Of a stretch of DNA of 55,970 nucleotides, positions 1 through 55,970 are shown in pieces (position 1 is the first letter of the stretch; each line of letters opens with the position of its first letter). Below the pieces are notes generated by a model. The model was not told the origin of the DNA. It saw only the letters and a program-made list of their open reading frames with translations, and made no database searches. The translations under genes were made by a program, and so were the position numbers. The DNA is taken from positions 1-55,970 of the forward strand of contig NKIB01013530.1 in assembly GCA_002256025.1 (NCBI GenBank), read 5' to 3'. This DNA comes from Asterionella formosa (lineage: Eukaryota).

Positions 1-1606
1 GTTCTTCCTCGTACCACTTGTACTAACGAGCCCGCTACCATGTTGAAATATATGGCGCCACTCTAGCGCGCTCCAGTACTGCCCTGGAATGACCGGTCAA
101 GATCTTTCTCACGCCGCTCGTCTGCAGATTCTTCTGCTATATAAATCCTGTCTATTTCCGTTTAGACATTCCTCAGACTACCTAGTCTTCGGACACCTGT
201 CGACATCAACAGCCTAACAGACACACTCTGACATTGATGTACCGGTAGTATGGGACCGCTTCCAAATGTCATACGACGTAGAATAACTCGCTTGTACCTG
301 GTACCACTCGAGAATACCGGAAGACCAGGGAAACAGGGGATGTGGACGAAGCGCGGCACAGGAGCCAACTAAAAAACCTAGCAAAATTAAGGTGAAGTTC
401 GAAAGCAAGCAAGCAACATGTAAACCATGCAAGAAGGTCATGGAAGAAGCGATCTGCCAGCGAAACAACCATGCAGAGGGTTCAAGGCAGAAAGCTCACA
501 ATTCTGTGAATTAGCTTTCGACAAAGCAAATTGTTGATCACAAAGCCTTGCAAATTTAAAGTCATTAGATGAAAATTCACCCACCAAAGGTTAATGTGCA
601 AAACTCGACTGCAGATATGGGAGACCCAGAGGAAAGGAACTGCACAAGCTACTTAAAAAAAAATTCAAAAAACCAACTACGAGTCTAGAGATAAGTTGGT
701 CAACAAATCAACCTCAACAAAGAATCAAAATAGAAACAAAGGAACATTTGCAGAAAAGGCAGTCAAATGAGTCGGTAATTGAGTTGAAGTAACTTTGCAA
801 TAAAAGAACAACCAACACCTGGGATTACAATGTGATCCCCCACCAAAGTACCGGGTACTAACCAGATCCGATGATGCTTGTTGCCTGTGCTGAGCAGACA
901 AACAGGAAATGGTATTGTCATCGAGGTACGGTCATTCCTAAACATGAATACCCAGTAGGTAATACTGTTTGAGAAATCCTTCAAAATGCCCCAACATAGT
1001 GTTATAACTATAATAAAGCAGCAGAAAAGAGCGTCCATTCACTCCAGGGATCCCAATGTCCTCCACCATATTACTAGCAGGGCCTGATGATCCTTGCCTT
1101 CCCTGAACAGACTTGATGATCGAAACACATTGTATACCTGTTTGAAAAAGATTACACTATCAAGTATCGGCATGGAGTATTCTGTATTATGCATACTTGC
1201 TTTGGCATGTCAAAGCGAAATGTAAATACACAGGCATATGTTGAATAAGTTTCTGACGTTAAAATTGGTCGATGGGTTGGAGAATCGAAATGCGAATGGA
1301 AAATTGAGACAGAGGGGCAACCACCGGATTCTCTCTTTGGAAGGCAAAATGATTCGGCTATAACTCTTGGTCGTGACCACAGTACTGTACTTGATTTAGC
1401 TTCATGACAATGCTCCTGTCAAGTGAGTTGTAGATATCAGGTGGAAGGACAAAAGTAAAGGAATGTTGGCACTGGCCTTATTCTTTGTGTCAACAGAATC
1501 ACCAACATATCAATAAGTATCTATGTATCAATGTCGGGATCATAATGTGATAGACTCTGCACTATCTCGGGTTTGTTGAAAACGAATCTTGTCAATGCGA
1601 TAATAT

Positions 1607-3034
1607 TCAACTTCGTCGTGGTTTGGGCCTCCTCGCTTTGGATGGTCGCTGTGTCTTGTCCGAATCAATCCCTCCTTCACTTCTCCGCTTTGATCGCCTC
1701 CCTTCGCCAGCCAATCCATGCCCACGCTTGCCATTGCCTCGACTCATGGCTCGTTTCAAAACAAGACTGACTCTTCCATTATTCTCAGCTTCCCCTTCTG
1801 CTGCGTATACGGCATGATAAAAGTCATCGTTGCACGTTCCCCACATCTTTACAATGTCGCCCGAAAAGAGATGAATAACTGCTGGTGCATTCGCAGCTTC
1901 TCCAATATTGATGCCAAATCTTTGCTTGCTTGATTCCCATTCGTTCCAAGCTGTCATTCCGGGGATAGGCCGAAAGGCAAAACGTCTCGCATCGCCCGCG
2001 GCCACAACACATGTCAATCGCTCCCAAAAGGTGCCATGTTCCGGATCTGTGTGGAATTTGCATGCAGCTTCAGCATCTGGGTAGTGATTGCATAATGCAC
2101 AGTCAAAGTAAGAAGAAGCTAGTTCGAAATCACAGAGAGCCCGTTCAACCGCTCGCATAGTGGCACCAACAACCGAAGGAATTGGATTGGGGGTCATCAG
2201 CTTGCCACTATAGGCTAATGCACCAATGTCGGAATCGGCCAACCAAGTTGTGGCTCGTCTTTCCGTTACTGTTGATCCAGTTCTAGTCACAATAGTATCA
2301 AAATTGAATGGAATCTCACTGCGTAGTGTGGCAACGACATCGTTACTGGGGACAATCTCAGTCCAATCTAGTCCAAGCGGTATGATATCAAAAGGAAGCC
2401 CCGCGACCAAATCATCGAGGATGGAGAGATCTAGCAAGTCTTTCAGGTTCAATCTAGATATAATTCCCCGGGAAGCCCATCGAATTTCAACGACCTTTGA
2501 CAGTGGCATGTACGGTGCCATTGCAATTGCTCGTGCTATCAACTGTCGAACTCCTTCTACTGCGTCGTCGGCTAGCTTAATGGATTCTGAGTTCCCAAAC
2601 ATACAATGAAGTCCCAATAGAGCTTGTTTAACATAGACTCCTTCCTTTTCCCATCGATCACTCTCAAAGGGAATGGACGCTCCTAAAATCGCTCGAGTTA
2701 GCCGGGTATCCTCTTGTTCCGCATGGTACATGGTTCCTCCAAGTCTTTCCAGTAGCTGAGCACTCCATCGTTGGCGCTTCTCGTGATGCACTCGTTGTGA
2801 TTGTAGATGAGGAGCTATATTTGGGTCGGTTGGTAACCATAAGGACGATGCTACTTGTAGCAAGTCGTGCGCGGTCCTGGCAACTTGAATGGCCTGGCCA
2901 ACGGAATGTGATTTGTTTGGAAGGGCAAGCGACATGGTCGTCACCGCGAAGGATTTCACTTCTCGAAACAAGACGAAAACCAAGAAAGAAAGGATGCATT
3001 GCGGTGGGAGCCGCCGCCGTTTCATTATTTCCAT
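1607..3034 (-). CDS. AlkB-like 2OG-Fe(II) dioxygenase, probable bipartite (plastid) targeting peptide
   Basis: 475-aa ORF. Motifs LAYSGK, FDCALCNHY, HxD (KFHTD), distal His (FYHAV) and GRVSLVLKR match the AlkB/2OG-FeII_Oxy_2 fold. Hydrophobic N-terminus followed by VKS|FAV. Confidence 0.85.
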   Translation of the reverse strand: MEIMKRRRLPPQCILSFLVFVLFREVKSFAVTTMSLALPNKSHSVGQAIQVARTAHDLLQVASSLWLPTDPNIAPHLQSQRVHHEKRQRWSAQLLERLGGTMYHAEQEDTRLTRAILGASIPFESDRWEKEGVYVKQALLGLHCMFGNSESIKLADDAVEGVRQLIARAIAMAPYMPLSKVVEIRWASRGIISRLNLKDLLDLSILDDLVAGLPFDIIPLGLDWTEIVPSNDVVATLRSEIPFNFDTIVTRTGSTVTERRATTWLADSDIGALAYSGKLMTPNPIPSVVGATMRAVERALCDFELASSYFDCALCNHYPDAEAACKFHTDPEHGTFWERLTCVVAAGDARRFAFRPIPGMTAWNEWESSKQRFGINIGEAANAPAVIHLFSGDIVKMWGTCNDDFYHAVYAAEGEAENNGRVSLVLKRAMSRGNGKRGHGLAGEGRRSKRRSEGGIDSDKTQRPSKARRPKPRRS

Positions 3035-4383
3035 TGCTCTCGGGCACTAAATGGGGAATAAATATATACCAGTGTACCGGTAGCCATATGAGCAAATTTC
3101 AGAAATAAAAGCGAAATAAAGAGTGTGTCGAATAGGGGACCAAGTAAATAGCCCAAGAATAGCCAGCTCTCCTATGCTGAATGCAAGCAATAAAACGCAA
3201 CTACCGGTATAATATACCAATAGACAAAGGACTACCGGGTAGACGTAAAATATAAAATATCAAAGCAAGTGGCGGTGGATAGGAATTTTTAGCTATGTTT
3301 TCCTTATAGTTAAAACTGTGTTTTACCGAAACTCCCATAGGTACGCAGAATAGGTATACCGGTACCAGGTACTCTCCTGCCGAAGGTCTCGTTAAACACG
3401 TTTTATGCTTCGAAAAAGGTTAAGCTAAATATCTCGATTACCGCCCCTTCCTTGGAGCTCAGGAATGCGCGGTAATCTGTAGCTGAAGTACCTGTAATAC
3501 TCCCTCTGTCCACTATTAGTTGCATTGAAAAATCTGGCAGATATAGCCAATATAATAGTGATCTGGAGGGATATGTTCTTGAGATCATGTTCTAAAAATC
3601 GAAAAGGAGGAGACTACCTTGTTATGGCTTGATTCTTACTTTGGAGTGCATCTATCCATCTGCTTCTTCTCATTTTCAACATGACCTGCTGTTATGTTGC
3701 CTGCCTTGCAAAGTAAGGAAGAGGAGGGCCCCAACCACCAGACAACAACTTGAGAAGCAATGTATTCCCTAAACAAGGGAAATTCTTCCCAGTTTGAAGA
3801 AGGATTCAAAAAAGTTACAGTTAGAAAAGTATAGACTATTGCCTAATGGATCTGTATGTATTCAGTACCCACATATGATCATGTATTCCTACAGGTCAAA
3901 CCACGTCTATTTATTTATGATTGGGGACAAACCCGAACGAACTGCTTAATAGGCTATGAGCTGTTGACTCCTAGCCAATAGTACACCGGTAGCCAGGTTA
4001 GTGTACATACCGGTAGATCGGTAGTTCATACTATGCAGTGCAGGCACTGGTAACTGTAGCTACCGGTGGCATCGGGGTGTACCTGGTACCTGATACTCGA
4101 ACAGGTAGGGGTATACCTGGTTCCTTTGACATGGTGGTTGTTACCAGGTACCACCCAGTACATATGTACCTGCGTTCACAATAATATTTAAGGGACTGTG
4201 ATAGGATCAATGTTCGCATCTGTACTCCGTCGACCCGCCTCGCCTCACAGCAGGAAAAACATGAGGAATGTACATGTAATTGTTCCTCATAATGACAAGT
4301 AATAATCAAAACTTTACAGCACACATCGTGTTGATAGACTAGAATACCTGGTACCTGGGAATTGACGACTATCATCTTCAAAC

Positions 4384-6522: not shown

Positions 6523-7051
6523 TCAAATTTATAGAGAAAGATTAAATCGTCTGCGACAAGCAGCTGCTAGCGCCTACTACCCAAATATCATTAATGGCCT
6601 TTCTAGGCCTGCTCCAGGGTTAACCTCTCGCCAACAACAATACCGCTCCTTTCGAAATCAGTGCTTGCGTTCGAAGAAAACGAGTTCTGGATCGGAAATC
6701 TAATTCTCTCCGATTTACGGGAATTAAAGGGTCCCAATGAGTTCTCAAGGATGGCCGCGTCATTCCTCATAATTGCTGAGTGGACCAGAGGACAGTACCA
6801 ACACTGCCTGTACTCGCTACAGTTCACTCAAGATCGATAATTAACCGTACAGTATCTGTCGAAATGAGCATTTTCCCATCACTAAATCCATTATCCGTCA
6901 AGCTAAAACTTAGCCATTGTGTTATTGCTCTGGCGGTCTATAGTAAACAGGGCTAAAAGCTAAGTCTCGTAAACGTTTATGGGGGGGGGGGGAAGACATG
7001 CAACTTTGGACTGACTTATTCTGTTCCCGACAAGCTGAGAAGTGGAAACGT

Positions 7052-8665: not shown

Positions 8666-8859
8666 GGCAAAATCGCTAAATCACAGAAATTTTGGCAGTG
8701 AGGGGAAGAGCGAGGACTCCCTGAGACAATCACAATCACATCTTGGTCATCTATGCAAGTTCTTTGTCGTTTTTGTTCTTCATCACGGCGAGGCTTCTTT
8801 CCATTAGCTAGACTGGTTCAATTTGCGCGATTACTATTATATTTATATTTCATACCGGT

Positions 8860-9521
8860 AGTTGAAACATAGAGATTCCTGATTCCAGATCAGGTTATGA
8901 GAGTGTCAATATATTTTCATCTCTAGTGACCTGATAAGGAACATGTACCTGGTACCACAATCCACTAGAAAGGACACATGGTTAAATATCGCGTGTAAAA
9001 TGCCACAGTTGAGAGAGGAACTTTCAGGAGAAGTTTTCTCTAACCTTTTAAATGGACTCTAGGAGGCAATCAGACCTAGAGGCCAAATCAACAAGTGATT
9101 GATTAGACAATTTCAGAGAAATGTCCGCAAAATCAAGGAACATTAAAGAAGCAAACTAGATATGATCTAGTTATGGTTAACAGGATCATTCTATAAGCAG
9201 TCTTCGATCAAACAGCAATTGGCCTAAGTTGAGACAGGTCAAGATTAGACAAATGTGTATCTAGGATGAGAATGCATGTAGTTTATTCTCAGTTCAAGTT
9301 GGGAACACAAATGAACCTCACCTCCAAAGATCACCTCTATTTTGAAACATGCATGAGTTTGGAAGTTTCAAAATTATACATTCCAATTTACATTTACATT
9401 AAGCTCACTCTTTTATAAAAGCAACTATCAGCAAACAAAGTAAAACAAACAATTGTGTAGAAACAATTTTTCTAGCAATTTTTAATGCGTGAGAGCTACA
9501 GATTCGCAGCATCTACCAACT
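8860..9521. mobile_element. 662-bp interspersed element, copy 1 (solo-LTR-like; AGTTG..CAACT ends; 5-bp TSD CCGGT)
   Basis: Reverse-complement homolog of 49014-49675 over its whole length. Flanked by CCGGT at 8855-8859 and 9522-9526. Confidence 0.85.
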
Positions 9522-9908
9522 CCGGTATGATAGGGTTTTGATACATACCGGTACCGGTAGATAGACTACGGTAGTTAGTTATAGTACTGGTAGTCTCGTT
9601 TACAGTCCGGCGTACAGCTATATACCGGTATATGTTTTATTTATTGAATGTATATTCGTGGATTTACATGTCAAATGCCTACTATCCCTGGAACCGTGGT
9701 GCCTCATTGCGCTCCCATGAACAATTGTAAACTGATACCATGAGGACATGGAGATCGCTGCAATATATCATGTAGGAAATTGAATGACCAAAGCATTACC
9801 TGATAAGGGAGGAGTGCGAGCAAGCTCAACACATATCTAAGATGCCATGTAAAGCAACAGTAAAAGTGATCCAGGCTATAATATTTTTAGACAGGAACAG
9901 AATAATTC

Positions 9909-12881: not shown

Positions 12882-13447
12882 GATTACTGCTGTGTATCGT
12901 CACCGCAAGGAGTAAAGATGGAAGGCAGGAATTAGGGAAGTGGTCACGTTCGATGCAACCGTCCAAGACAATGCTAATGATCTGATCTGCTCTGCTCTGC
13001 TCATCACTCAAATTAGTTTCGAAGGGTTTTATGACCGGATGGAAGCACGGCGCATTTGCATTGTCACACCAGCCATTGGATGACGACGATTGTATGTGGT
13101 GCATATTGTTCCTATGTGCAGATGTACAGTATCTCGTATACGACATTCATGACCGTGTACCGGTATCAGGTACCAGATACCCTGGTACGTGGTACAAGGA
13201 TGATACCGATTTAATTGTTACGTATATTCCTACCAGTAGACTAACTACCTGCTACCGGCATGTCCATAAAGATGATGATGAGAATGGATTTAATTAGTGG
13301 GCGGCTCCATTCTGTGTTCTGGGACAGTTGGACAGGTCTAGGAACACCATTGCCTGCGAAACCTGCGATGTACCGGTATTTGTATTTGTGCGATATCTCT
13401 CGCTAATTAACGCTACAAGATTCATCACCAAAACGGCTACCGGTACA

Positions 13448-13948
13448 ATGGCGCTCCAAGCACTTTATCACAAGGTGATGGGACCTCTTTCGACGTTCTA
13501 TAAACGACAAGTCGCACATGAACTGGCAAAGACTGGTAAGTTGCTTGGAAATCCATCTATCATTCACTGAAAAACACGCCAGCGCAAACTGGTGTCCAGT
13601 TGGATTCCAGTCGGATGAATCGAGATATGCAAAAAGGTGTTTCTCACTTCCTTCTTATTTTCCTTTACTTGATCTTTGATATCTATTATAGGCCTTCGTT
13701 ATGAGGATTTGCTTTATGAAGAGAGCGCCGAAGTTGCGGAAGCAATTGAACTGGCTGACCCTGCTGTTGTGCAGGCACGTAACCGTCGTCATTTGCGCGC
13801 ATTTGACTTGGATGTCAAAAAGAAGAATTTCACTGATTACGCTCCTGCTGTCGATCAAGAAACATTCAAGGTGGAGATATATGACGATATCGTGAAGATC
13901 CGTCAGCGCAATGCTGAGTACGCCATGCTCAACATGTACAAAAAGTAA
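13448..13948 (+). CDS. QCR7: Cytochrome b-c1 complex subunit 7 (14 kDa), two exons: 13448-13535 and 13692-13948
   Basis: Splicing the GTAAG..TATAG intron (13536-13691) joins MALQALYHKVMG..LAKT to GLRYEDLL..RRHLRAFDL in frame. GLRYEDL and RxxRAxDL are UCR_14kD hallmarks. Confidence 0.9.
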
Positions 13949-14372
13949 ATAAAGTTTTTGTGGGATTTTAGTGAGGAGGTATAGGAGTCAAAGAGACCAA
14001 CGTAACAAAGAATAACATTTATTTTAGAATCTACCATTGATTTTTTCAAGTTACTACTTTTCCGGTCTCATTTTGTAATTGACATTAAGGTGCCAAATGG
14101 AGATAGTATGGAAAGACCTTGAAGCCTCTTGTCGTGGGTAGCGAGGGAATTAATTGCTCAGTAAAGGGTATTCTTTCTGCTGGAAAAAAATGGTTGCTGA
14201 ACCGAGGAGGGTCGATGTGGAAGTAAGTGAAACTCACAGTCACCCCAGGCGATTTCACCATGAAGTAATGGCGCAAAAGCACATTACTGTCGTAGCCCAA
14301 GGCTGTTCTGGTGAAGGAACATCAGCCGTGGGTGATATTCACGAATGATTACCAACAGTGTGGTTTCTCTCG

Positions 14373-15116: not shown

Positions 15117-15328
15117 GCAACCGGGAATGCAGATCTAAGCCTCCTTCACAGATCCATGCCAGTGGATGCAGTGAAATCACTCAGAAGAAAGGACAAGGAC
15201 TTATTTCTAGTCCGTCGCTTCTTGGGCATTCAGGTAGCCTCTTTCCTTTTTATTCAACAAGGATCGGGACGCGAGGAGCAAGTATTCTGGAACATTGTAC
15301 TGGTACCAGGTATTATGTATTAGAAGTG

Positions 15329-16613: not shown

Positions 16614-18094
16614 AAATCCAACAGGGTATGATATAAATTCATAGAGCACACGATAGTAGAATATTATTTGATAAATTGTTTCTCTGTGTCTGGCAGCATT
16701 TGATGGTATCATTGTGATTGTGTCAACAGGTGCTTTATATTTTGCTTGCTAATAAACAAAAGAGTTTATTGTATATGTATCTGATTGATTGGCTGGTGGT
16801 GCCTGTGTATATTTTGCTCTATATGAATATGTACTGGTATCCCGTATTTATTTCCTTTCTGCAAGTGTTTATATATAGTATAAACATCGCCAACTGTACA
16901 TAGTAGCTATGGTATTCAATGTGTTGATTAAAAATAAATATGTGTTAACCTATGATTTTGTCAAAAATAAATGCACTACATTAATACAAGTTACAGGTAT
17001 GTACACATGCTGGCACATACCGGTAGTCTGGTGGGTATACCGGTGTGAACCTGGGAAACTGCTAATAACAATGGATTTAACCCACATATGGGCTATGAAT
17101 AGTAGGTACTGCAAGGGTACATGGAAGGGCCGAATCTATAATGCATAAGGTTTGCAATGCAATTTGAAATGCAATTATGAATGTTGTGGGCATTTCCCTG
17201 CAACCAAGTTTACAAAAAAATACAATTTTTGCACAAAAGTGTCCGAAAATGCTGAAACCGTCAGTCAGGGGAATTCATGACTTCTCACACAATGCGAATT
17301 TTCTAGTCGCTAAAGGAACAAGAAGTGTATTGTTGCATGTCTATATTCAAGATTCCATAGATATATGATCCATGACAATTAGTAAGTTCATGATAGTAAG
17401 TTCAAAATTATAAATTGATTTATTTTGTTGCATTTTGAGATTGTTGCACCCTCTCTGAGATTTCTATCGCTCAAGTTTTCTCATATTTTTGTACAGAAAA
17501 TAGAAATAACTATCTAATAGAAGTTATCAAGCTGGTCACTGCGGACTCAGAAATGTCTCATTTTTTGTATCGCGCCTCAAACAAACTGAGAAAACGACGG
17601 AAAAAATTCTAGTGGCAATTTCAAATTTTTGTTGTCAATCCCAGTGCAAAATTATATTATTCCAGAATGCGATATAAATTTATGGGCAATTAAATAATGC
17701 GAACACATCGACAACAGCATTTCAATTTTGACTTACTGCTTCCTCATCAGTTTGATTGTTCTTGTTGTTCTGGTTATCTATATCAGACACTGATTGTGCT
17801 GGAGAATTCAGAACTCGAAAATACACATGTACAAAGTATCCAGTGCAACAACCATATTACTCACATTATTTGGCAGCGAAAAGAGATGGATTAAATTTCG
17901 CAATCATTCTATACTATGGTTCATCATCAATATCCATCTTCTTCTTTCAACAACCCAAGCCAAAATTCAAGTTTTATCGTGATGCGGCCCACAACTAGGC
18001 TAGTTTGCATCACATCATGATCTGGTAAACAACGCACAATGTTAGAATACATGAGCAAGTAGCAGTCCTTCTCAAATATATATATATATATATT

Positions 18095-26278: not shown

Positions 26279-26281
26279 ATC

Positions 26282-29238: not shown

Positions 29239-29289
29239 TTATGGATTGATGCATATCACATACCGGTAGGAAACCCAAACAGTTGTTCT

Positions 29290-35000: not shown

Positions 35001-35289
35001 GGAGTATCTGTTCTGTTGCTCGCTTATTATATACATTGCAAGCAATTAAAATTTGAAATCGTTCTGTCATGTTAACAAACAATGCCTGCTTCATGAAAAG
35101 AAATATCTTAGTAAAGCACATGACAAGAAGGAAAAGTTTATGCAAGAACGAAAAACATTGTAGCTTCGACACATTGCGCCTTCGAAAGATTGGAGCATGT
35201 TTAAGGTAATGAAGCTATCAATGTGGTACTTTGATGAAAATCGTTGGGAGGCAGGACAACAACAAATTGTAAACTAAAAGCAAATTTCC

Positions 35290-36230: not shown

Positions 36231-37167
36231 CAAAACATGAAGAGCTAATCAATGATATGCTTCTTTTTGCTAGCAAGAATATTGGGACAACAAAACGGAT
36301 TCAATAGTAATGGAAACATGCGTGAATGCAAACTCAGATCCGTCAGGAGTAAAAGGAAAGCAGGGGAACAAGGGCAAGGAAACCAGTACAACAACATTCA
36401 GAATTGGATTGGGGGGAAGGTGGAAGTGAAAGCACCAATCACTGCGATGAGAGAATCCTATTTTAGTAGACAGTGACTTCGATGAGAATTAAGATCATGC
36501 TAAGATAGATGCATTACAAAAGTATACACATCATAGGCCCATTTTTTGATGCAATGGTATTATTATACATATGATAGTATCATCATACTTCAACCTCAGT
36601 AAAAGTTTACTGCATGATCATGATTATATGATACATTGATCATATTTTTATCCAAAAATTATCATTTCTGTAAAAATCATGTGCCACTTAGTGTATGATA
36701 CCATTGATCCTATATTCATGATAGTTTTTATTTGCAGACATGGCTATATGAAGTCTACCTATGTAAATCATTCGCCTTCAAACCCAGCCAACTTTCTTCC
36801 GCCCCAAAAATTCGACAAAATAGCCTTTTTCAACGGTCTCCAACTAATTTCAGAATCAGAATCACTAAGTGCCAAAATGTCATCATTGGAATAGTAGTCT
36901 TGTGCTAAATTTTCTAGTTGTAAAATCTCCTGTACAAGAAATCCAGTTTAAGTGCCTGCTGCATTTTTTTATATTTTGATTGTTTACATAGTATAACTTA
37001 CCTCGATTTGATTGGCCCAGTTTGAGAAGTCTTGCAAACCCTTGCAGGGCACAATGGATGCACATGCAAAATTTTGTGTGTGTGTTTGCCAGTACTATAT
37101 CCACTACCAGGTACCTTGGATGAGTGTCTGATCATGATTGATCATACATCATAGACGTACCAGGGTA

Positions 37168-38600
37168 CCACTTAAAAACTGTTAGCCACCGTTGTTTTAC
37201 TCTATCTTTCGACTAACAATATTTATGTAATTCAACGATCAAAGCTTGATGCAAGTACAAAGCTATGTTAGAGAATGCTCTCTGCTATACTATTCAGGAA
37301 TCAGTTTTGATACAGTGCATCTAGCCATGAAGAAATAATTTTTCCAAGTCACTAAGATTATTGCATAGCGGTGGCTTGCAGTGTATATTTTTCTATGTGT
37401 ACATGTATATATTTTCCCCCCAAACTGTGATTATTTTTACTCCGTTAATACTACAATAATTTATTTTCTTATTACTTCACGTTTTACACTTTTGCAGGGC
37501 AGCTTCGTCATCGTTGGAGAATTCTTCTGATGCATTACATTAATCTCAAGCTTCTTTGCATCCAATTACTTGCTTGCGGAGTCTCAAGCTTCTTCATGGA
37601 ATGGTGGATTTACAGTAGCAGTTGTAGAAGGACAGAGAATAGAAACAGGAGGAGGTGCAGTAACAACAACAACAGCAATAGGAGATGTATGGAGAGGGAA
37701 TGGCGGCTGCTGGTTACCACAGTGATTGGTGTTGTCGAATCTTGTAATCAGAGCTTGCCTTGTTTGTGGAATTGGCAAATCACCTGATTGTTTGTACCAA
37801 CGCACCATTAATTTCAATTCTGGCACAGACATCTGTTCTTTTGTTTTGTTCTGTTCCTTCAATGTAAGTACTTTTCCGCGAAGTAAATTGAATTCTTGTT
37901 GCCTTTTTGTTTCTTTTGTACTAATGACAATGTCTGAAAATCGCTTCTGTTCCAGTGTAACAGCAAGAATATTTGGCCCAAGGGCAAAGGTTTGCAGAGG
38001 CCAGTATTCCTGCTGCTATCCTCTTCTTGCGTCCCTCAATGTGTGAATCCGCTGTCTCCTTTCTCTTTCTAACAACCGTTTTGCTCACTACTATCTCCAA
38101 CCTGCCAGTAGCTTGTACCATAAGGAACACCAATACAGACTGTCCAATTGTGTTCTGGGTTGTTTATGTATTCAAGGAGCAAAATGTCAAATCGAGACCC
38201 ATGTCCATCAAGTATTAGGAATGGTGGGGGCCCGTTGTTTTGAGGAAAGATGCCAGAGTCATCCATGTGCTTTAGCATGCCAACCAGAAGCTCTGCAGTG
38301 ATTGAGCCATTTTCCGCACACAGCAGTATGTAGGCAACTGTTTCCCTTCCACATCACAGACTGTTCCTTGTGGATATTGTTTTCCCTTTCCACTGTTGCC
38401 ATTTATGTTTTCATCTTCTCCTTCCCAAGCAGCAAATGGATCTAGGCCAAGCTTCTAGTTCCCTAATCACATTGTTAAGACAAATCTGAACAATGACCAA
38501 CTCTGCAGGAGACAATTTTTTTCGAGGCAAGGCATTGCCTTGTTGAGGCGCTTTCGAGGTCATGATGTTGGTATTGTGATGGGTGATGGGTGATTTTTGT
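37168..38600 (-). mobile_element. Truncated pogo-like (DDE_1) DNA transposon with transposase pseudogene
   Basis: TA|CCACTTAAAAACTG TIR at 37168. About 370 bp shared with 48184-48560. The minus strand gives PFLILDGHGSRF..CIGVPYGTSYWQVGDSSEQNG and a C-terminal ELKLMVRWYKQSGDLPIP. No second TIR found. Confidence 0.85.
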
Positions 38601-39264
38601 GTTTGCATTTAAATTTTGTACTCGTATTTCCTTGGTTTAGCAAATCACTGAAGCGACCCATTCTCGACACACCACCACCATTGCATTCTTTGCTGAAGGC
38701 AAAAAGCGGGACACCAACCGCACCGGTACGTAGAAGGTATGATTCCTATGATTACCTACTACAGCAGGTTACATATCGGTACAAACATGAGACGCACTAC
38801 TACTGCTTGTGGGGAAAAAGAATTTCATGATTGCTATTAGCTACATAGCTAATGGGGTGGGGTACCAGGTACAATATTTCAAACACTACCATCACGTTTT
38901 ACGTCCGGCCCAGTTGCCAGGTACCGTCCATGTATGTAAACTGTGTGCAAATATACAGAGGTTGTGAATTACTGGTATAAATTTTAACATACGCACTATA
39001 ATGATCTACATTTTGTCTATTCTTGTCACCTCACCACTAAGAATACGACAAGTTCGGTTTCCTTGCTGCCGGTAGTGACTAAAATTGAGTTCGCTTCGCC
39101 GTCGCTTCCTTGCTTTACAAGTGACACTGTGTTTGGATTCATTCTATTCTGCTCGTTCAATCTCACCAGGCCTAGAGTAGTGTTAACACCAAGCTAGGCA
39201 GAACGAGGAGAAACGAACGGACGCGAAGTAACCGACAAAACGAAAAGCACAAGCAAGCAAAAAT

Positions 39265-41316: not shown

Positions 41317-41623
41317 TTAAAAGACGATTGCATGAAATACTAGCTATTGAGTTTTTTCAAATGAAGCCTATGTATAACTATTTAGATTTTACAATCATGT
41401 ACAGGTCGCACAGGACGAATCTACTCTCCAGAGCGGGACAATGTTGACTGCTAGGTGGGTCTATCTGATTATCCGGAAAGTAATTGCTTCTGGCGGCTTT
41501 CGTCTCAAGTCCTCAGACAGGGCCCATTGCGTCGTGTACATACTAACATACCAGGTACCACAGGTTAAAAAAATGCAACTTTTCTCCTATTAGCTGGAGC
41601 TGTAAAGATCTTAGTAACATACT

Positions 41624-41697
41624 GGCGCGCTCTGATCATAAAAAAATAATTATATCGTGTGTTAATTAAACACAAATCGTTGTACCCATAACCCCAA
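41624..41697. mobile_element. Isolated end fragment of the Harbinger family found at 42113-44798
   Basis: GGCGCGCTCTGAT..AATAATTATATC..ACACAAATC..TGTACCCATAACCCCAA matches the reverse complement of ~44720-44797. Confidence 0.75.
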
Positions 41698-42399
41698 GGA
41701 CTGTTATGACTTCTCTTCACATTCTAATCATGACTGTGAATTGTGTTATTCCTTTTCCCACAAGTATTTAAGTGGCTGGTCAATGTAAACAGTATTTGGT
41801 GATATGTAGATGTACTCAATGAATACATGTATGTTAAATTTCTTTCAATCAATTTATTTAGATGCTAATGAAATATTTAATGATTGCAAGTTCAAACTCA
41901 TGTGTATGTAACTCATGAAAACGCATTTTTACAAGTAAACCGACCCTCACATAGAAAAATGGTTTGTAGTCTACGTTATCCGTCCCAAAATAAGCTGCTT
42001 GGCACTGAGGGTTCCGACATAATTCATGTGACTGTTATTGGAAGGAGGGAGTACTACTGGTAACTGGTACCTAACATCTAAATACACACAGTGGTATAAA
42101 TTTGTAAATAGTGGGCGCGCTCTGATAATAAAAAATTATTATATCATGTGTGTATTATTGCACAAATTATTCTGGTGATCTGCTACATAATATCGTCCTT
42201 GCGCTCTGATAATAGAGATATTTTAGATTACTTCTCTGACATTATATATATTTTTAACTTTAATTTTCAACAGTTAAATTTTCATATCGATGCATCCTCT
42301 TGTATGCTATGCCGCCTCTTGTTCATTATGTGCATGAGTTCTATATATTCATCATTGTTGGTCACTGACCATGTTGACTTTCATCTCATCTCATCTCCT

Positions 42400-43603
42400 G
42401 ATGATGATGATGATGATGATGATGATGACATTATGATCACATTGCTACTGTTAGCAATGTGCTATCCACCAGTAAATAAGACGCCATCGTTCAGGGAAAG
42501 TTTGACTGTTGATGAGGTCAGAAGAAGAAGTGGCAAAATCCGTTGCCACGCACTACAGTATCCATTATCGAGTTCATTCTGGACTTTGTTCAACAGCAAG
42601 CATGATGATGCTCTGATTACCTTGTGTGGGTTTGACCATTCTTCTTTCCAGCTCCTACACCAGCTGTTCAAACCTTGTTTTTATTCCTTCACTCCCTGTA
42701 GGAAAAAATGGATTTCATTGTTAGAAATTCAACAACAAAGAAAGGTCGGCAAAGATACCTCTGTTGCTTCCATCAGTTGTCTAGCGCTTGGGTTAGCATG
42801 GACCAGGACTCGTGGTTCCTATATGATTCTTCAGATTATTTTCGAATTAACTCATGGTTCTTTGAGTGTTTGGTTGAGGTTTTCAAGGCAAATGATTGTG
42901 AAAGTACTTCTGACACCACATGAAGCTGCCGTTGTGGTGAGACTGCCTACTGCAGAAGAAGCCACCTTGTTTACAACCATGATCAATCAGAAATTCTCAC
43001 TTATAACAAGTTGTTGGGGAGCAATGGATGGTCTGAAACTGACCCTGCAATGGGCTGGAAATGAAACACAGCAGAACAACATCTACAACGGATCATGGAC
43101 TCATGAACACTATGTGACAAACTTGTTTCTTTTTTTTGCCTGATGGCAAAATTCGCTGCTCATATTTCAATGCACCTGGTGTTCTACATGACTCCACCAT
43201 GGCAACTTGGTCATCGATCTATGATCAGATTGAAACAGTTTACAGGGATATAGGTTAAAAAATAGTTGTGAATTCAGCATTTGCATCTAAGAAATCAAAT
43301 GCAATGTTGAAATCGCATTATAATAATGTTGATGCAAATGGTAATCCTCGACAAAGATTTGGTATGAATCGCCAAGCCAACTAAATTTGACAGCTGTCGG
43401 AATGGGGAATGCGATGCCTTCAGGGATCGTTTCCGAGAATCAAAGACAAATTTCGTTATGAAGAAAAAGGTGAGAGAAAAATAATTCTCCAAATGATTGT
43501 ATTGCTCTACAACTCTTGTGCTAGCAAAGTTGATCAGTACCAAATTGCTTCAGTGCTATATATGCCCTATTTGCATAGGAATGCAAATAGATATGCCATG
43601 TAA
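42400..43603 (+). pseudogene. Harbinger DDE transposase (DDE_Tnp_4/HARBI1-like) with frameshifts and a stop
   Basis: LALGLAWTRTRG, WGAMDGLKL, YNG.WTHEHYVTNLF, PDGKI..NAPGVLHDS, VVNSAF and EWGMRCLQGSFPRIKD. A (GAT)n run at 42400-42429 gives poly-Asp. 5' boundary approximate. Confidence 0.85.
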
Positions 43604-43671
43604 TTCAAAGAAATAATTCATTCATGATTATTTACCACCACTTCTTTCATTTTATATTAGAATGAATTAAT

Positions 43672-44700
43672 TTAAGGTTGTTCATCATCACTACTACTAC
43701 CACTGTTGTTTTTTAGTGTTTGACATTGAGTTGAGGCAGACAAAGTTTGTTGTGCATTGGCACCTGCTGTTGAGGTTAGATTTTGGCTTTGCATTGTTTG
43801 CTGCATTGAAATCATGTTCAAAGCAATAATTGAATTCATCATTGCCTGAATGGGATCAGCTCTGTCAGTGGAGGTGGTTGTTTGAGATACCCCACAATTC
43901 AATGATGATGCCATGATTGACATCATCATCATGTTCATCATGTCCTGTTGCTGCAGTTGTTGCTGCTGCAGGTTATCAGTATCAGCTCGAGTAGCCTTGT
44001 GAAGAAACTGCATCGAAAGAAGAGAAAGCACTTTCTCAACAGGCCCAGTATTGCTCGACACTGCCTTATCTCTAAATCGAGGGGACACCATAGGTCGAGG
44101 AAATCTTGAACCAGAGAAATTAGCATAAGCGGCAGATGTTGCTCCACCATTGTCTTCACTCTCCCCAGAAATCGCTATAAAAATCATCATCAACATTTGG
44201 ATCATCAATATTGGGCTCATTGTGCTCCCTCTCTATTCCAAGCAAGATCAGTGGATTCAATCTCAGCACTTGCATCGGCTCGTTGCTCGATTCTTCAAAA
44301 ACTTTGTTTGGCATATCTCACCTCAGCAGGGCATGTTGGGTCCCCAATTGGTTTCTTAACTTTGTGCAGCTGTGTAAACTTTCGGCGAAGTGAAGGTCCT
44401 GTCCATTCTTTGTCTGGGAAATTCTCGTTGTGCTGTGAAGCAACTACTTCCCATTCATGGGACCCAATTAACAGGTGAGTAGAAATGGCGTTCAGTAAGG
44501 GATGAGAGAATCTCATTGATCCTGAACTGTTGACCCCGACTCTGCATGCTTCGGCGAGCCCTTGGAAACGTTGGTGGTCGCCTGGCAGTTGCCGTTCTTG
44601 CAACTGAATTAGTAGGAGCACGTGAAAAATCGTTGTTGTTCCTTGATGGGGACTGAGTAACCCCAGAAACACCAAGGTGCTTACCAGGTTTACCAAATTT
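43672..44700 (-). pseudogene. Harbinger ORF2, Myb/SANT-like (DUF6818-like) DNA-binding protein, frameshifted
   Basis: IGSHEWEVVASQHNENFP..SLRRKFTQLHKVKKPIGDPTCPAEVRYAK followed by an acidic and then an M/Q-rich C-terminal region. Confidence 0.7.
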
Positions 44701-44981
44701 GGTCAACACAAACACAAATTTTGGGGTTATGGGTACAAAGATTTGTGTTATATAATTCACTTGATATAATTATTTTTTATTATTATCAGAGCGCGCCCAC
44801 TGTTTACAAATCTATACCACGGTGCGTATTTAGATGTTAGGTACCAGGTACCAGTAGTACTCCCTCCTTCCAATAACAGTCGCATTATAGACATGGATCT
44901 GGAGCTTAGGGCAAGCCGCTATGGCCCCCCTTGTGCTTCGTCCTCTTAATCGATCCCCTCTTCCCCTTAGTCAAGTAAAAT

Positions 44982-48083: not shown

Positions 48084-48183
48084 CATTCAATACTTTTGTA
48101 CAGTTTAAAACGGATGACGGATTCTGATGGTTCATACCGTACTTAGCTTGAGGTCGGTACGTGATGCATTGGATGTACCAGTA

Positions 48184-48931
48184 CCACTTAAAAACTGTAA
48201 GCAACCGTTATTTTACTCCATCTTCCGACTAAAAAATATTCAAGTAATATAACAATCGAAACCTGATGCAAGTACGAAGTGTATGTTACACGATGCACTC
48301 TTTTCTACGAATAAGTTATCAGTTTCGATTCAGTGTATAAAGCCATGAAGATCTAATTTTTTTAAAGTCATTAAGATTGTTGCATAGCGGTGGCTTACAG
48401 TGCATATTTTTCTATACATACATGAGTATATTTTCCCCCCAAACCGTGATTATTTTTACTCCGTTTACACTACAGAAACTATTTTCGTATTACTTTACCT
48501 TTTTTGCGCGATGCAGTATGCTTTTTGCGCTTGCATCATCACCGAATTCTTCTGATGCATAATGTATTCGAAAGCACAATGACGTCGTACACACATTTAA
48601 TAATGCTAAATTAATTCTATGGCAAGAATTTCTCCAAATACATGTGCACGTGTAGAAAGACGATGCCAGTTCAATAGAGTAAACATGAAATTTTCCATTT
48701 TTCGCAATTTCGCGTCGACAGCAACCTTTGGGCCGTAATAAGTAGTTAACAACTTACACAATGCAACAATACAAGTACGTACGTATTTACTCGCTATATA
48801 AATCTGAACAACTCCTTCGTGACAATAATTAACGTATCTTCCAAACTAAGTTCAAACCGTGCGTTTACTCCGTTTAGCGGTGGCTTACAGTTCAAAAGTC
48901 GTCATAGCGGTGGCTTACAGTTTTTAAGTGG
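48184..48931. mobile_element. Complete 748-bp non-autonomous pogo-like element, TA TSD
   Basis: 28-bp TIRs (CCACTTAAAAACTGTAAGCAACCGTTAT and ATAGCGGTGGCTTACAGTTTTTAAGTGG, 2 mismatches) with TA on both sides. Internal TAGCGGTGGCTTACAG repeats at ~48385 and ~48876. Same family as 37168. Confidence 0.92.
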
Positions 48932-49013
48932 TACCAGGCACCAGGTACCTGATAGGCACCTGACATCGAGCATTGATGTACCGGTAGATAAATAGAGAAT
49001 TATACTGGACGGT

Positions 49014-49675
49014 AGTTGGTAGATGCTATGTATCTGTAGCTCTCACGCAGTAAAATTTGCTAGAAAAAATGTTTCTACACAATTTGTTTGTTTTACTTTG
49101 CTTGCTAATAATTGTTTTTATAAAAGAGTGAGCTTAATGTAAATGTAAATTTAAATGTATAATTTTGAAACTTCCAAGCTCATGTATGTTTCAAAATAGA
49201 GGTGATCTTCGGAGGCGAGGTTCATATGTGTTCCCAACTTGAACTGAGAATAAACTACATCCTCTTCCTAAATACACATTTGTCTTAATCTTGGCCTTGT
49301 CTCAACTTAGGCCAGATGCTGTTTGATCGAAGACTGCTAACAGAATGATCCTGTTAATCATAACTAGATCATATCTAGTTTGCTTCTTTAATGTTCCTTG
49401 ATGTTGCGGACATATCTGTAATTGTCTAGTCAATCATTTATTGATTTGGCTTCTAGGTCTGATCGCCTTCTAGAGTCCAATTAACAGGTTAGAGAGAACT
49501 TCTCCTGAAAGTTCCTCTCTCAACTGTGGCATTTTACACGCGATATTTAACCATGTAATCTTGAATCAATCATCTAGTGGGTTGTGGTACATGTTCCTAA
49601 TCAGGTCACTAGAGGCGAAAATATATTGACACTCATAACCTGATCTGGAATCAGGAATCTCTATGTGTTTCAACT
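49014..49675. mobile_element. 662-bp interspersed element, copy 2 (AGTTG..CAACT ends; 5-bp TSD ACGGT), inverted relative to copy 1
   Basis: Flanked by ACGGT at 49009-49013 and 49676-49680. TATAAAAG at ~49119 and AATAAA at ~49249 on the plus strand. Confidence 0.85.
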
Positions 49676-52184
49676 ACGGTACTCATGACTTACTATGATA
49701 TTATGGAGTATTAATACCGGTACGAGGTACCAGGTAACTGGTACCTGATGGATGCGCATACATACATGTCAGTACGTACCGGTGTGTTGTAGAATTTTGT
49801 CGGCATGAACTTTTCTTTGTCCTGCTTGTCATTAAATATTGCGAAACCATATGATCGGTCTACAGTTTGCCACGGCTCACCTTTGTCATTGCTAGCTACG
49901 GATGTGCTCATTTGTATGAAGCGACGATCGATTATCGCAGCAATCAACCGAAATCCATGCTGTCTCGTCAATCTCTGAAATACTAGCTAGTATGCAGCAA
50001 AATTGCAGGTGAACTTTGGGTTGTAGTATCTTGTGACAGTTGCATGTTGGTAATGCGACCACCATTCTAACAGCTCGTTGCATGTGTGGATGTCATTTTA
50101 AAATAGAATGTTGATGACTAGATATCATGACAGCCATGAAAATGTTTGTTTGATTATGCAGTCGTCTGATTTATACTGTTTACCATCCATGCCTAGTATA
50201 GAGTCATATGTCTTCGTTTTCGTCGCCAATTCAAGCCCAATTGGTTGCCCGCTATCATCGATTAACCACCCTGTTCTTATTGCTAAAAAACCCTTCGAAC
50301 GTGTTTGTCTATTATTCTCCGAATTCAAGTTTTTAAACTCTGGCGCATTTTTGATTGTTGAATTGAATCAAGCTTTCTGGATTCTCTATCACCATGTCAT
50401 GCAAATTTGTCACTGAAGGTCCACCATTTGTTGCAAGCTGATAAAGCAGGTCGGGTAGTTAAAAATTCACACAAATAACATGATTCTTTGATGGATTTAA
50501 GAGATGATTGAACTCGCTCCATAAGCCTATCATTGAGGCTTCATCAGCGATGCAAGGAGTGCATGAAGCTAAACTCACAATGTGCAAGATTATTCAAAGT
50601 AGCTAGGAGTATGGATAAATCTACTACTAAAGAATACAATGTTACCATCGAAACTCTGATTTTGAAACTTTGATGCTAATGAATTGCTACTAGTAGTTAT
50701 TGAAATGAACAAAGGAATTAATTTGGTTCAAGCAGTCAACCGAAGAATCAGGCCACGATTGTTGAATGTTGTCAACAATTTTCAACAGAACAAGTAGTAC
50801 TGACACTACTAATAGCTAGATATTCATTTCATCTACATTCTATCATTTGGTTGAGGTTGAAATGAAGTGATAGTGAGTCGTAATTTACATATTGTGTGTA
50901 TGCTATAGTTACAATATTTTTTGTCATCTGCTCCACCACCCTGCAACGTATTATCAGTACTTTCTGTATTAGGTATGGATGGGTGTGGTCCGCCCGAGGT
51001 AGAAGTCGTTCTCGTGTGTACATTTTGCTCCGACCATTTTTTAGGTGTCGGTTTGACCTAAAATTCAGGGTGTGAATAAGAAGTACCGGTACGTGCGAAT
51101 AGAATTTCGCATGAAATTTGGAAAATAAACAGCGAGGTCTGTGCATTAGGTATACACAAAAGGAATTTTCCGCATAGCGAGGAAATACGGAGTTTCCCGT
51201 ACCTCCATGTATGTACTTGTTTGTACCTGATGCAATTACCCGGTAATATACTTAGATGCTAGAGGACTAACTGTTTTTATACAGATCGACAGTTTCCGAT
51301 TCACATCTATGTAACTAATTAAAAACGCAGTTTTTCGAGTAAGCGAGCCACTCGTAGACAACGGTATGCAGGCAACACTCATCTTTAACAAGAGTACCAG
51401 GAACCAGGGACTGAAAAAAAGCACAAGCAAGGACTATCGAATGGCCCGACGCCTGCCGACTCAACTCCAACCAGGTTACAATGTCAAAAAGTAAAATAAA
51501 TATTCTTGTAATCTTTAAATAAAGTACCGGTAGGTAAATTGTAATGTTCAGAAGTGAAGAATTCATTTCGCTCTCCAAGCAGGCAGTGGGGCTCCTCGGC
51601 TCATTCCCAGATGTCCCTGTGGTCAAATGGCGGACCGGCGACAACACTCGTTTTCACCCGTATTATAACAGTTTGTCGCGCTGGCTGGTATTCAGTTTAA
51701 TTCCTTGCATGTTGGCTGCGGCTTTTGAGGAAGAGAATACCGGGTATGCTCCCCGTTAAATATGTTTTAATTGTGAGTTGCATGCATCCGTTCATTTATA
51801 TAAGTATATTGTGTTTCAATTAGCATCAACATACAGCTACGTATACATCATTTCTCCGTTGAAACATTTTTGTGGGGGTCAATCGATAAATCATATGTTT
51901 GTAATTTTGTGCGAAGCAATGCTGGCGTAACTCTTTATTCATGTTATCTACCGCTCAGACCGATTCCAGTTAACAGCTTCCATCGCCTGATCACAAACGA
52001 AGATCAACTGTCCCATTCTGTATCAAGGAGCATTGTTGACGTCTAAAAAAACTTCCAGCTTGCGAGATCTTGGATTAATCCCTTAATTTGCGATTGCTCA
52101 GTAGTCTTGTCAATAGGGCGCCAAACTTCCGTAGTCCCACCCAGCGCCTTTGCCTTCAATTCTCTTCGATAGCACTCCGTCACG

Positions 52185-54645: not shown

Positions 54646-55605
54646 TTATGAAGAAGATAAGGTGGCGTCCTTGACCTCTTGTGGTAGTTCCATCTTGGCC
54701 AGTCTCATGGCATGTCCATCGTGCGCCCAAACAACAGCTGCTGTCGCCGACAAGAAATGCCATGCACTGTGCAGAAAGGCATAATGAGGTCCTGCAACCA
54801 CCAATGTTCCGAATCCGACGGCACTCAGAATGGTGGTGGTTCGACTGGGTTTCCCACACCGGTGCCAAAAGTAGAAAATTGCCGAAATTGCAACTGCATG
54901 ATCAATATAGCAAAGCATTTCTGCCAATTTAAAACTGCCTAATGCTTGAACCGTATGAAAGCATGTGCTAACAAAACCAGCTGTCAATACCAGGACTCCA
55001 AGCAAAGGGTAACCTTGAAGAGTTTTTGGCAACTTGGCATGCGCCAAAGTGCCCGTTTCGCGGAGGAGAAGATAAGAGCCTGATATAAAGTAAGAAATGT
55101 TGCTTCCGAGAAAGAAGCCGATGATGAGTTTGGCGTACGGTGAATTGAGAATGTGGTCCATCCTAGTAAGTGGCCACCATTTAGGCATGGAAGCTACAGT
55201 TCCAAGAACGAGGGAAGAATACACTGGTACAAAAGCAAGAAGCATAGGCAAGCACCACCAGCATCGGCGAAATGATTTCCAGACAGAAATCACAGTAGAT
55301 CCAATGACAGTGGGCAGGGTCATTATGGCCGGACCATTCACGGCAAAATTTTGGTGAACGTCATCATTTATAGCTTCATTAGATACAGTCGCCAAATCAC
55401 TGGATAAGTTGTTGTCTGTCTTCGAAAGTTTGGTTTTGTGAATACCATCATCGTGCCATACTGAAATACCCTTCCAATTTGAGCCTTTGACGCTCGTTTT
55501 GGCCAATGATACTTGCAGAGCATCTGCTACAGATACATCGATCCAGACGAGGAGGAGAACCAACACAGCGAGTGAGGCCTTATGGTAGTTTGCCCTTATG
55601 AGCAT
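54646..55605 (-). CDS. CREST-superfamily membrane protein (ceramidase/PAQR/Per1/SID-1/TMEM8-like) with signal peptide
   Basis: Multi-TM protein with SxxxH (STCFH), Asp (YIDH) and HxxxH (HSAWH). ATG at 55605 precedes a hydrophobic signal sequence. The track start at 55659 is GTG. Confidence 0.7.
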   Translation of the reverse strand: MLIRANYHKASLAVLVLLLVWIDVSVADALQVSLAKTSVKGSNWKGISVWHDDGIHKTKLSKTDNNLSSDLATVSNEAINDDVHQNFAVNGPAIMTLPTVIGSTVISVWKSFRRCWWCLPMLLAFVPVYSSLVLGTVASMPKWWPLTRMDHILNSPYAKLIIGFFLGSNISYFISGSYLLLRETGTLAHAKLPKTLQGYPLLGVLVLTAGFVSTCFHTVQALGSFKLAEMLCYIDHAVAISAIFYFWHRCGKPSRTTTILSAVGFGTLVVAGPHYAFLHSAWHFLSATAAVVWAHDGHAMRLAKMELPQEVKDATLSSS

Positions 55606-55970
55606 GCTGTTATTGTTATCGGTCAATTTATGGACAATAAACCCGCGAATGCTGAACACCTACATAACACTTCCTCCACCCGAAAGTGCAGAATTCAACT
55701 GGTGCTGTGGCGCGAGACTGACTACGGTACCGGTATAATGGGAACAAAAAGGATTCGAATTCTCAGCCAACGGTATGATAAACATGTAAGTACTGTGGTA
55801 TTACTTGTAAAAATCAACCCAGGTTGTATTTTTCTGTAGGCCTCAAGTATCGTTCTACTGCGGATGGTAAAATACCTTGACGGTATTTTTCCGTACTTGA
55901 TCACGAGAAAATACAGTATTGTACAACAAAGAAAAAATCAACCCGGTTGCATTGACGGTTGATTTTGTAC

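Follow-up and report, generated by a model that had tools for sequence, protein, structure and literature searches.

The 55,970-nucleotide contig NKIB01013530.1 of the diatom Asterionella formosa (assembly GCA_002256025.1), analysed here over its whole length and referred to as the window, carries eight long open reading frames (ORFs) that together make up 13.7 kb, or 24% of the window. Five of the eight are supported by Pfam as 2OG-Fe(II) oxygenase, DnaJ/zuotin-like, ankyrin, HEAT/importin-like and DUF6824 proteins, the last from what we take to be a diatom family; the scan covered 13 ORFs of at least 150 aa and 43 of the 85 ORFs of at least 90 aa, with seven rescanned at a loose threshold. 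The window also includes two copies of a miniature inverted-repeat transposable element (MITE), two copies of a second element, here called element A, one of them truncated, a PIF/Harbinger element and a 19.9-kb block of repeats. It further carries short palindromes bounded by TA, namely TACCGGTA (TA-CCGG-TA) and TACCWGGTA, which an earlier note had read as footprints left by the excision of transposons.

The window holds 19 TACCGGTA and 12 TACCWGGTA sites, each where the earlier note had placed it. The note had estimated that either word would be expected about once or less. The shuffle expectations are 0.19 and 0.22; the observed counts were matched in none of 100 shuffles for either word, and the enrichment is about 100-fold and 55-fold, respectively. 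TACCGGTA is the most over-represented 8-mer of the window under both order-1 and order-3 Markov backgrounds, with a both-strand count of 38 against expectations of 0.5 and 1.8. When all TA-x-TA words were counted, the enrichment lay in a small family with CCGG (19 sites), CCWGG (12), CCSGG (four TACCSGGTA sites against 0.1 expected) and CCAG or CTGG centres (TACCAGTA and TACTGGTA, 10 sites against 1.1 expected). We use the term unit for a TA-bounded word of the CC(N)GG type, the wider census permitting one mismatch in the centre. Perfect units number 35 against 0.54 in 50 Markov simulations, and units with at most one centre mismatch number 72 against 10.4. The hexamers GGTACC (29 sites) and ACCGGT (30 sites) are both enriched, and the one-base-short forms TACCGTA and TACGGTA occur six times against 2.4 expected. 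The words are real and strongly non-random.

Their placement is uneven. As the earlier note had observed, intact coding sequence is free of them, with 0 of the 31 sites in the eight long ORFs (P = 1.7e-4), and the units are concentrated in 5' spacers, a pattern also expected from promoter-biased insertion. The divergent spacer at 3047–4365 (1319 bp) holds 11 units, which make up 5.5% of its bases, the highest share of any spacer; the spacers at 8681–9911 and 12900–14375 hold seven and eight units, and the gene-side spacers with the highest density reach about one perfect unit per 0.15–0.6 kb. The suggestion in the note that footprints build up a considerable part of the intergenic DNA fails on these numbers, as units including one-mismatch forms total 466 bp, or 0.8% of the window.

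The centre of the CCWGG words matches the bases with which a resident TA-duplicating element ends. An element ending TA/CCA...TGG/TA (slashes within such strings mark element boundaries) had been claimed in the note, and one is indeed present as element A at 48184–48931, the one clear element in a scan for TA-flanked inverted repeats. It shows a TA duplication, and its inverted repeat, which starts with CCACTTAAAAAC, is perfect over 19 nt and extends by eye to about 27 nt with 25 of 27 matching. The element is non-autonomous, contains internal copies of the inner repeat word AGCGGTGGCTTACAG and has no ORF of at least 90 aa. The source of the CCGG words is ambiguous, because the MITE ends can be read as TA/GTTG or as TA/CCGGTAGTTG. 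TA stands directly before GTTG or after CAAC at three of the four MITE ends in the window and in one loose-end copy in strain X2, and all four window ends are flanked by CCGG-like bases (TACCGGTA/GTTG, CAAC/TCCGGTA, TACCGTA/GTTG on the reverse strand and ACGGTA/GTTG). Read depth over the MITE in run X1 is about 467,000 in bin 8672–9338, against about 640–1,340 in neighbouring single-copy bins.

Units and element ends are also joined to one another. All ten definable ends of TA-duplicating elements (four MITE ends, four of element A type, including an end-like stretch at 41557, and two of CATTGATG) share their TA with an abutting CC(N)GG-TA unit, which is perfect in four cases and off by about a base in six. 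The end-like stretch after the 41549 unit is degenerate and was recognised by eye. The element A ends read TA-CCAG-TA/CCAC, TA-CCAGGG-TA/CCAC and GTGG/TA-CCAGG-CA-CCAGG-TA, and the shared stretch CATTGATG runs into TACCGGTAG at both 240 and 48979. Such abutment is predicted by two transposon readings, in which the units are the outermost termini of elements or earlier units attract new insertions to their TA; it is not predicted if the words are regulatory.

The chained forms that the note had described exist, as 8 of 61 unit runs hold two to four units, with periods of 6–7 bp and 11 shared-TA links against about three expected (a hand estimate that assumes uniform choice among gene-side TA sites). 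Furthermore, the bases outside the units are biased. CC stands outward of TACCWGGTA at 13 of 24 flanks, compared with 4.6% of TA sites generally (P = 6e-12), and the outward base is C in 18 of 24, which means that 6 or more of the 12 sites must be symmetric. A is never found outward of TACCGGTA (0 of 38, against a background of 26%; P = 1e-5), which at a guess reflects a target preference of the R-TA-Y kind. These context statistics favour target preference, and a preference for (GG)TA(CC) would account for the chains as well. Where TACCGGTA occurs in unrelated viral contigs, A often follows the word. The coordinates of sites and elements are collected in Table 1.

Table 1. Units, chains and transposable elements in the window (slashes mark element boundaries; X12 is one of the sequencing runs compared with the window).
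Feature	Position	Strand	Remarks
TACCGGTA unit	240..247		preceded by CATTGATG, as at 48979
TACCTGGTA unit	295..303		then CCAC
TACCGGGTA unit, S centre	849..857		
TACCGGTA(G)	3075..3082		inward-facing partner at 3202; pair spans 135 bp
TACCGGTA	3202..3209		reverse strand TA/CCGGTAGTTG, same as MITE copy 1 left end
TACCGGGTA unit, S centre	3233..3241		
Two-unit chain TA-CCGG-TA-CCAGG-TA	3357..3371		
Possible 726-bp element (units at 3363 and 4080)			CCAGGTAC at both ends
TACCGGTA(GAT)	4008..4015		in strain X12, gap-free
Chain TA-CCTGG-TA-CCTGA-TA	4080..4095		in X12
TACCAGGTA	4142..4150		then CCAC; in X12
TACCTGGTA	4345..4353		13 bp before DnaJ ORF boundary; in X12
TACCGGTA	8853..8860		abuts MITE copy 1 left end
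MITE copy 1 (the '662-bp element' of the earlier note)	8861..9520	+	GTTGAAAC...CTACCAAC; high copy by read depth
TACCTGGTA inside MITE copy 1	8946..8954		7 bp absent from copy 2
TCCGGTA, one base short	9521..9527		abuts MITE copy 1 right end
Two-unit chain TA-CCGG-TA-CCGG-TA	9546..9559		
TACCGGTA	9623..9630		
Three-unit chain (CCGG, TCAGG, CCAGA), by script	13158..13179		by eye more GG-TA units to about 13196
TACCGGTA	13371..13378		
(C)TACCGGTA	13438..13445		
Chain TA-CTGG-TA-CCAGG-TA	15298..15312		in X12
TACCGGTA(GT)	17018..17025		
Sole perfect unit within the 17.1–37 kb repeat block	29261..29268		
TACCAGGTA	37105..37113		
TA-CCAGGG-TA	37158..37167		abuts truncated element A copy 2
Element A copy 2	37168..37600	+	left part only recognisable; end coordinate approximate
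TACCAGGTA	38863..38871		about 360 bp before ORF at 39232
TACCAGGTA	41549..41557		abuts CCACAGGTTAAAAAAATG, by eye like an element A end
PIF/Harbinger element	42026..44885	+	long inverted repeats holding TACTGGTA(A/C)CTGGTACC
TACCAGGTACCAGTA	44842..44856		in right Harbinger repeat; left repeat one substitution off
TA-CCAG-TA	48176..48183		abuts element A copy 1 left end
Element A copy 1	48184..48931	+	TA/CCACTTAAAAACTGTAAGC.../TA
TA-CCAGG-CA-CCAGG-TA	48932..48947		abuts element A copy 1 right end
TACCGGTA	48979..48986		preceded by CATTGATG, as at 240
ACGGTA, defective unit	49009..49014		abuts one end of MITE copy 2
MITE copy 2	49015..49674	-	
TACGGTA, one base short	49675..49681		abuts other end of MITE copy 2
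Four-unit chain (CCGG, CGAGG, CCAGG, ACTGG)	49715..49743		
TACCGGTA	51084..51091		
TACCCGGTA	51237..51245		inverted partner TACCGGGTA at 51738..51746, 510 bp in all
TACCGGTA(G)	51525..51532		
TACCGGTA	55728..55735		69 bp beyond 5' boundary of ORF 54649–55659

Imperfect units show a skewed spectrum of changes. Among one-base variants of TACCGGTA, transitions number 21 against 3.2 expected and transversions 8 against 6.1, and the CpG changes to TACTGGTA and TACCAGTA lead the transition excess (10 against 1.1). One-base variants of TACCWGGTA number about 29 against 7 expected, by our own sum of the variant rows. This spectrum looks like that of decaying relics and not like that of a strictly conserved site.

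On balance, we lean towards an origin of the words in transposons, through a combination of scars and target preference, as the most likely explanation. TA-CCGG-TA and TA-CC(N)GG-TA would be the debris of TA-duplicating cut-and-paste transposons with CC... and ...GG ends. Upon excision, both copies of the TA and two or three end bases per side would remain and be sealed by end-joining, such that CCA and TGG ends would yield CCWGG, and CC(G) and (C)GG ends would yield CCGG, for which the central CG could pair. Part of the sites would be the TA and first bases of truncated or internally deleted element ends and not bare scars. The transposase would favour TA in a (GG)TA(CC) context, a context found both at its own end junction and at each earlier scar. 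Because this context recurs there, new insertions would target the TA of existing scars or sites next to resident ends, giving rise to chains and to a unit abutting each end. The units would then decay by point mutation, presumably as neutral sequence. Insertions would concentrate near genes, mostly on the 5' side, and be missing from coding sequence and from the 20-kb repeat block.

Products of this kind are known from other systems. The excision footprint of Mariner and Stowaway elements keeps the duplicated TA and end bases (PMC4561436), canonical Sleeping Beauty footprints have cag or ctg between the TAs (PMC5224488), and the pogo element Passer leaves 0–4 bp (PMC9976928). As in Tc1/mariner and Stowaway footprints, TA stands on both sides of the words in the window, and their 4–5-base centre matches the resident CCA...TGG ends. 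A 3-base overhang is described for the cleaved Mos1 end (PMC3419177). If the overhangs were 3' and three bases long, as they are in Mos1 and Sleeping Beauty, CCG ends pairing through their central CG could produce TA-CCGG-TA. A one-base overlap would turn CCG ends into CCSGG and CCA ends into CCWGG, whose W centre parallels the C(A/T)G of Sleeping Beauty. Unlike Tc1/mariner footprints, the words described here occur at high density, as a near-uniform product, in chains and abutting element ends, and no excision event was seen for them. The process would be an ordinary one at unusual density; what is new here is the candidate CCA-ended source, the abutment, a biased context, the spectrum of variants, an uneven distribution and a link to Phytophthora. 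A literature search returned no description of mass footprint accumulation, either in diatoms or genome-wide, and a paper on Phytophthora infestans promoter motifs, discussed below, was alone in naming the octamer in a stramenopile context.

Several observations weigh against this account, and we consider them here together with the alternatives to which they point. The first is the asymmetry of the sites, as TACCGGTAG lies in one orientation at nine sites and in the other at two. Most sites could instead be a TA duplication together with the outermost six or seven bases of an element end, from families that share CCGGTA(G) or a mariner-like CCWGGTAC(C); with TA at bases 5–6 or 6–7 of the end, every insertion and every truncated or internally deleted copy would make the palindrome. 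We think this unlikely to account for most sites, although a range of evidence agrees with it. G stands on one side at 11 of the 19 TACCGGTA sites against about 6.8 by hand estimate, but the other eight have no G on either side. CGGTAGTTG occurs three times exactly and ten times with one mismatch, 13 in all against 6.0, and the exact copies include the MITE copy 1 left end and the site at 3202 (reverse strand, outside the MITE body). Inward-facing pairs are formed by 3075 and 3202, by 4008 and an imperfect unit at about 4062, and by units at 4237 and 4434 in a locus of another diatom; the units at 3363 and 4080 enclose 726 bp, and bin 3336–4002 shows elevated read depth. Among TA/CC...GG/TA pairs 40–1500 bp apart, 20 of 1110 have at least 10 of 14 inverted matches compared with 5 of 966 controls, counts that are inflated by the word itself, which supplies 6–7 of the 14 positions.

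The same reading draws on mariner termini. The Mos1 5' inverted repeat begins CCAGGTGTAC (PMC3419177), and TA followed by its first bases, CCAGGT, is identical to the first eight bases of TACCAGGTA; TA followed by a mariner-like start gives TACCAGGT, and element A read with its outer unit gives CCAGGGTACCAC, by eye like the start of Mos1. In contrast to mariner, the outer unit varies in length at the three element A ends (CCAG, CCAGGG and CCTGG), which suggests separate events, CCGGTA is one base shorter, and no mariner transposase is found among the scanned ORFs. Furthermore, a one-sided end does not predict the symmetry of at least half of the TACCWGGTA sites, and the loose-end MITE copy of X2 reads ...CGTATA before GTTGAAAC, without CCGG. 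The nine-to-two split in the orientation of TACCGGTAG likewise counts against a reading as termini only. The TACCCGGTA and TACCGGGTA pair at 51237–51746 has 10 of 14 inverted matches and may mark the CCCGG ends of a small element.

The joining step raises difficulties of its own. The full CCA-end junction TACCATGGTA does not occur in the window, and the one-sided forms TACCATA and TATGGTA are at background (6 against 6.7 expected). The CCWGG joint could not have been guided by microhomology, which CCA overhangs lack, and so uniform a product is unusual for end-joining. The transition excess lies far above the between-strain ratio of about 1:1, and some of the 'decayed' forms may be primary products. 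Part of the sites are probably TA and the first bases of an element end rather than excision scars. We conclude that the sites are a mixture of scars and termini, an excision scar being the limiting form of an internally deleted element.

Repeat copies bear on individual sites, and self-BLAST placed only 2 of the 35 perfect units within window-internal repeats. At 8946, the two MITE copies differ by a clean 7-bp presence/absence (ATG-TA-CCTGG-TA-CCAC in copy 1, ATG-TA-CCAC in copy 2), as the earlier note had reported. The polarity that the note had assigned to it does not stand, because there are only two copies and no outgroup, and because TACC stands on either side of the 7 bp, such that copy 2 could just as well have lost them through microhomology as copy 1 gained them. 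At 44842, the partner in the left Harbinger repeat differs by an A/C substitution (GGTAACTGGTACC left, GGTACCTGGTACC right) and not by an indel, which is the outcome that the note had named as speaking against a footprint. Because both Harbinger arms carry the structure at the same position, it is part of the element's own repeat and no local scar.

The 8946 insertion can also be derived from the adjacent GTACCA by inverted copying, as would result from break repair without any transposon end, in which hairpin or snap-back synthesis at a GTAC or TACC break copies the flank inverted. Ac/Ds footprints, which are palindromic copies of flanking DNA (PMC4561436), provide a precedent. We nevertheless hold such an origin to be very improbable, as it leaves unexplained both the abutment and why TACC(N)GGTA alone among palindromes is enriched. 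Snap-back templating was tried and rejected, because the complementarity it predicts, between the centre base and the one that follows the repeated TACC, holds in only 4 of 13 oriented cases. The palindromic junction of hAT (Ac/Ds) footprints is shared by the P nucleotides of V(D)J recombination, palindromes that arise from hairpin opening; whereas those copy whatever flank is present, one fixed word recurs here.

A further set of observations concerns gene regulation. The block at 17.1–37 kb contains 45% of the non-ORF TA sites, yet just one perfect site of the 31 (P = 1.8e-7), and its 19.9 kb hold 10 units including one-mismatch forms, a single one of them perfect. Two convergent spacers (1385 bp together) hold none, and by our reading of unit and ORF positions a unit lies within about 650 bp of the 5' boundary at all eight long ORFs. 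The upstream units and the empty convergent spacers also fit a regulatory element, and the palindromes could be selected cis-regulatory sites for a dimeric factor with half-sites TACC and GGTA, with no part for transposons as their source. In line with this, TACCGGTA is the predicted promoter motif M94 of P. infestans, where it is marked conserved and occurs at 0.03–0.22 per kb in the promoter sets of Table S1 (PMC3597505); the octamer is identical, it is promoter-enriched in both cases, and P. infestans is another stramenopile. Several features make this reading quite unlikely: the TA bounds are invariant although the centre can be four or five bases long (CCGG, CCWGG, CCSGG), units form chains with 6–7 bp periods, every defined transposon end has a unit, a 7-bp presence/absence lies inside the MITE, and the excess of one-base variants suggests decay.

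M94 and its sister motif M93 (TACATGTA, reported to occur 4150 times in P. infestans promoters) stand outside the six motifs tested functionally in that study (PMC3597505). Both are there taken as transcription-factor sites from over-representation and conservation, and the parts of the text consulted consider no transposon origin. M93 has the form TA-CA-TG-TA, which is that of the Tc1-type footprint. For this reason M93, and with it M94, may represent scars of transposons instead of binding sites.

Other diatoms carry the octamer as well. A metagenome search with the DnaJ-like protein yielded five loci from other diatom species (42–59% identity), in which TACCGGTA is enriched, with four occurrences in 27.6 kb, a further point on the side of the regulatory reading. 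In L005, a cluster of TACGGTA and TACCGGTA precedes the DnaJ/zuotin-like match by about 140 bp, a loose hint at a regulatory role, while L001 and L002, which are 99.9% identical and without an informative indel, have TACCGGTA close to the end of the DnaJ/zuotin-like gene. The inward-facing pair of L002 noted above consists of TACCGGTAG and CTACCGGTA and spans 205 bp.

Nor did the ORF scan yield the enzyme that the scar-plus-preference account requires. No Tc1/mariner/pogo transposase domain was found by Pfam in the scanned ORFs, a scan outside which 396 ORFs of 45–89 aa lay. The same ORFs contain no pogo-type transposase (DDE_1 with a CENP-B-like domain), leaving the pogo label that the note had attached to element A without support. 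The only transposase found is that of the PIF/Harbinger element, which spans 2.9 kb with inverted repeats of about 117–145 bp. It is assigned to this group and not to pogo because relatives of its 343-aa ORF at 42112–43140, the best of which is 84% identical, carry PF13359 (DDE_Tnp_4).

Reads that match the window come from sequencing runs labelled as algae and as freshwater or lake-water metagenomes, and runs X1, X2, X6 and X12 were compared with the window over positions 1–20000. Five sites (4008, 4080, 4142, 4345 and 15304) are present in X12 in contigs listed gap-free. In X6, 8853 lies in a gap-free contig, and 13371 and 13438 in a contig with one gap letter. The X2 contigs contain 52 gap letters over 701–8870 and 9 gap letters, net +7, over 9434–15486. 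Among the indels listed for the four runs, high-copy repeats predominate. Within the spacer at 3047–4365, none of the 13 listed X2 differences falls in the 75 unit bases, against 0.7 expected, which is uninformative on constraint.

Of the footprint reading as the earlier note had framed it, the tie to TA-duplicating transposons stands, through element A, the abutment, the chains and the context. The polarity of the 8946 case, the pogo label and the extent do not; the sites are unevenly distributed over the TA sites, and part of them look like element ends instead of scars. If an origin from scars and target preference is correct, the promoter regions of this diatom hold a dense and legible record of past insertions and excisions in which scars outnumber surviving elements, and past transposon activity, target choice and repair pathway could be read directly from the genome. 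Over-represented palindromic octamers published as candidate transcription-factor sites in stramenopiles might then be mutational debris, or show debris becoming regulatory raw material. Should the words turn out to be binding sites instead, they would represent a widespread uncharacterised promoter element common to diatoms and oomycetes.

A more speculative extension, which we regard as doubtful, is a self-reinforcing scar ratchet. Here the transposase would prefer the (GG)TA(CC) made by its own scars and ends, arrays with a 6–7-bp period would grow in promoter DNA, and the same process in other stramenopiles could have yielded M93 and M94. Part of the stramenopile 'regulatory code' would in that case be transposon scar tissue, or scars recruited as binding sites.

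Some minor observations concern the elements and repeats themselves. The Harbinger element also has convergent minus-strand ORFs, one of which matches DUF6818, and a third partial copy of its inner repeat lies at 41620–41700. For this fragment (41510–41780), a start of homology at the TACCWGGTACC word was rejected, as the homology begins further in. The Harbinger ORF had no match in a viral contig collection, and the MITE core and the 191–214 repeat had none in viral contig or genome contig collections. The element A end gave one match in viral contigs, read as chance (no TA before it, coding-like context). The double unit gave at least 120 matching stretches there, of which the eight richest in units look like coding or repeat sequence unrelated to the window.

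The 17100–37000 block is AT-rich (GC 0.34–0.39) and contains several families of tandem repeats of about 190–200 bp, together with a duplication of about 1.65 kb (26277–27600 versus 27954–29240). A foldback element at 18074–18473, with 139-nt arms that are 91% complementary, adjoins a (TA)n run. By read depth, very high-copy repeats lie at 1–667, 15342–16675 and 19344–20000, reaching about 2.2 million in X1 against the same single-copy bins as above. X1, X2, X6 and X12 all diverge from the window at 16318, and this high-copy repeat boundary was considered as an element end and discarded, there being no clean end at that position.

Finally, a second TA-bounded palindrome, TAGCTA, is enriched in the window, with 33 sites against about 9–10 expected (for example at 8806–8811 and 38839–38855). 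Words of this type include CTAGCTAG at five sites and TACTAGCTA at seven, and a (TAGC)n run lies between the TACCGGTA pair of L002 (4335–4354). TAGCTA could be a second type of scar (TA-GC-TA) or a microsatellite seed.

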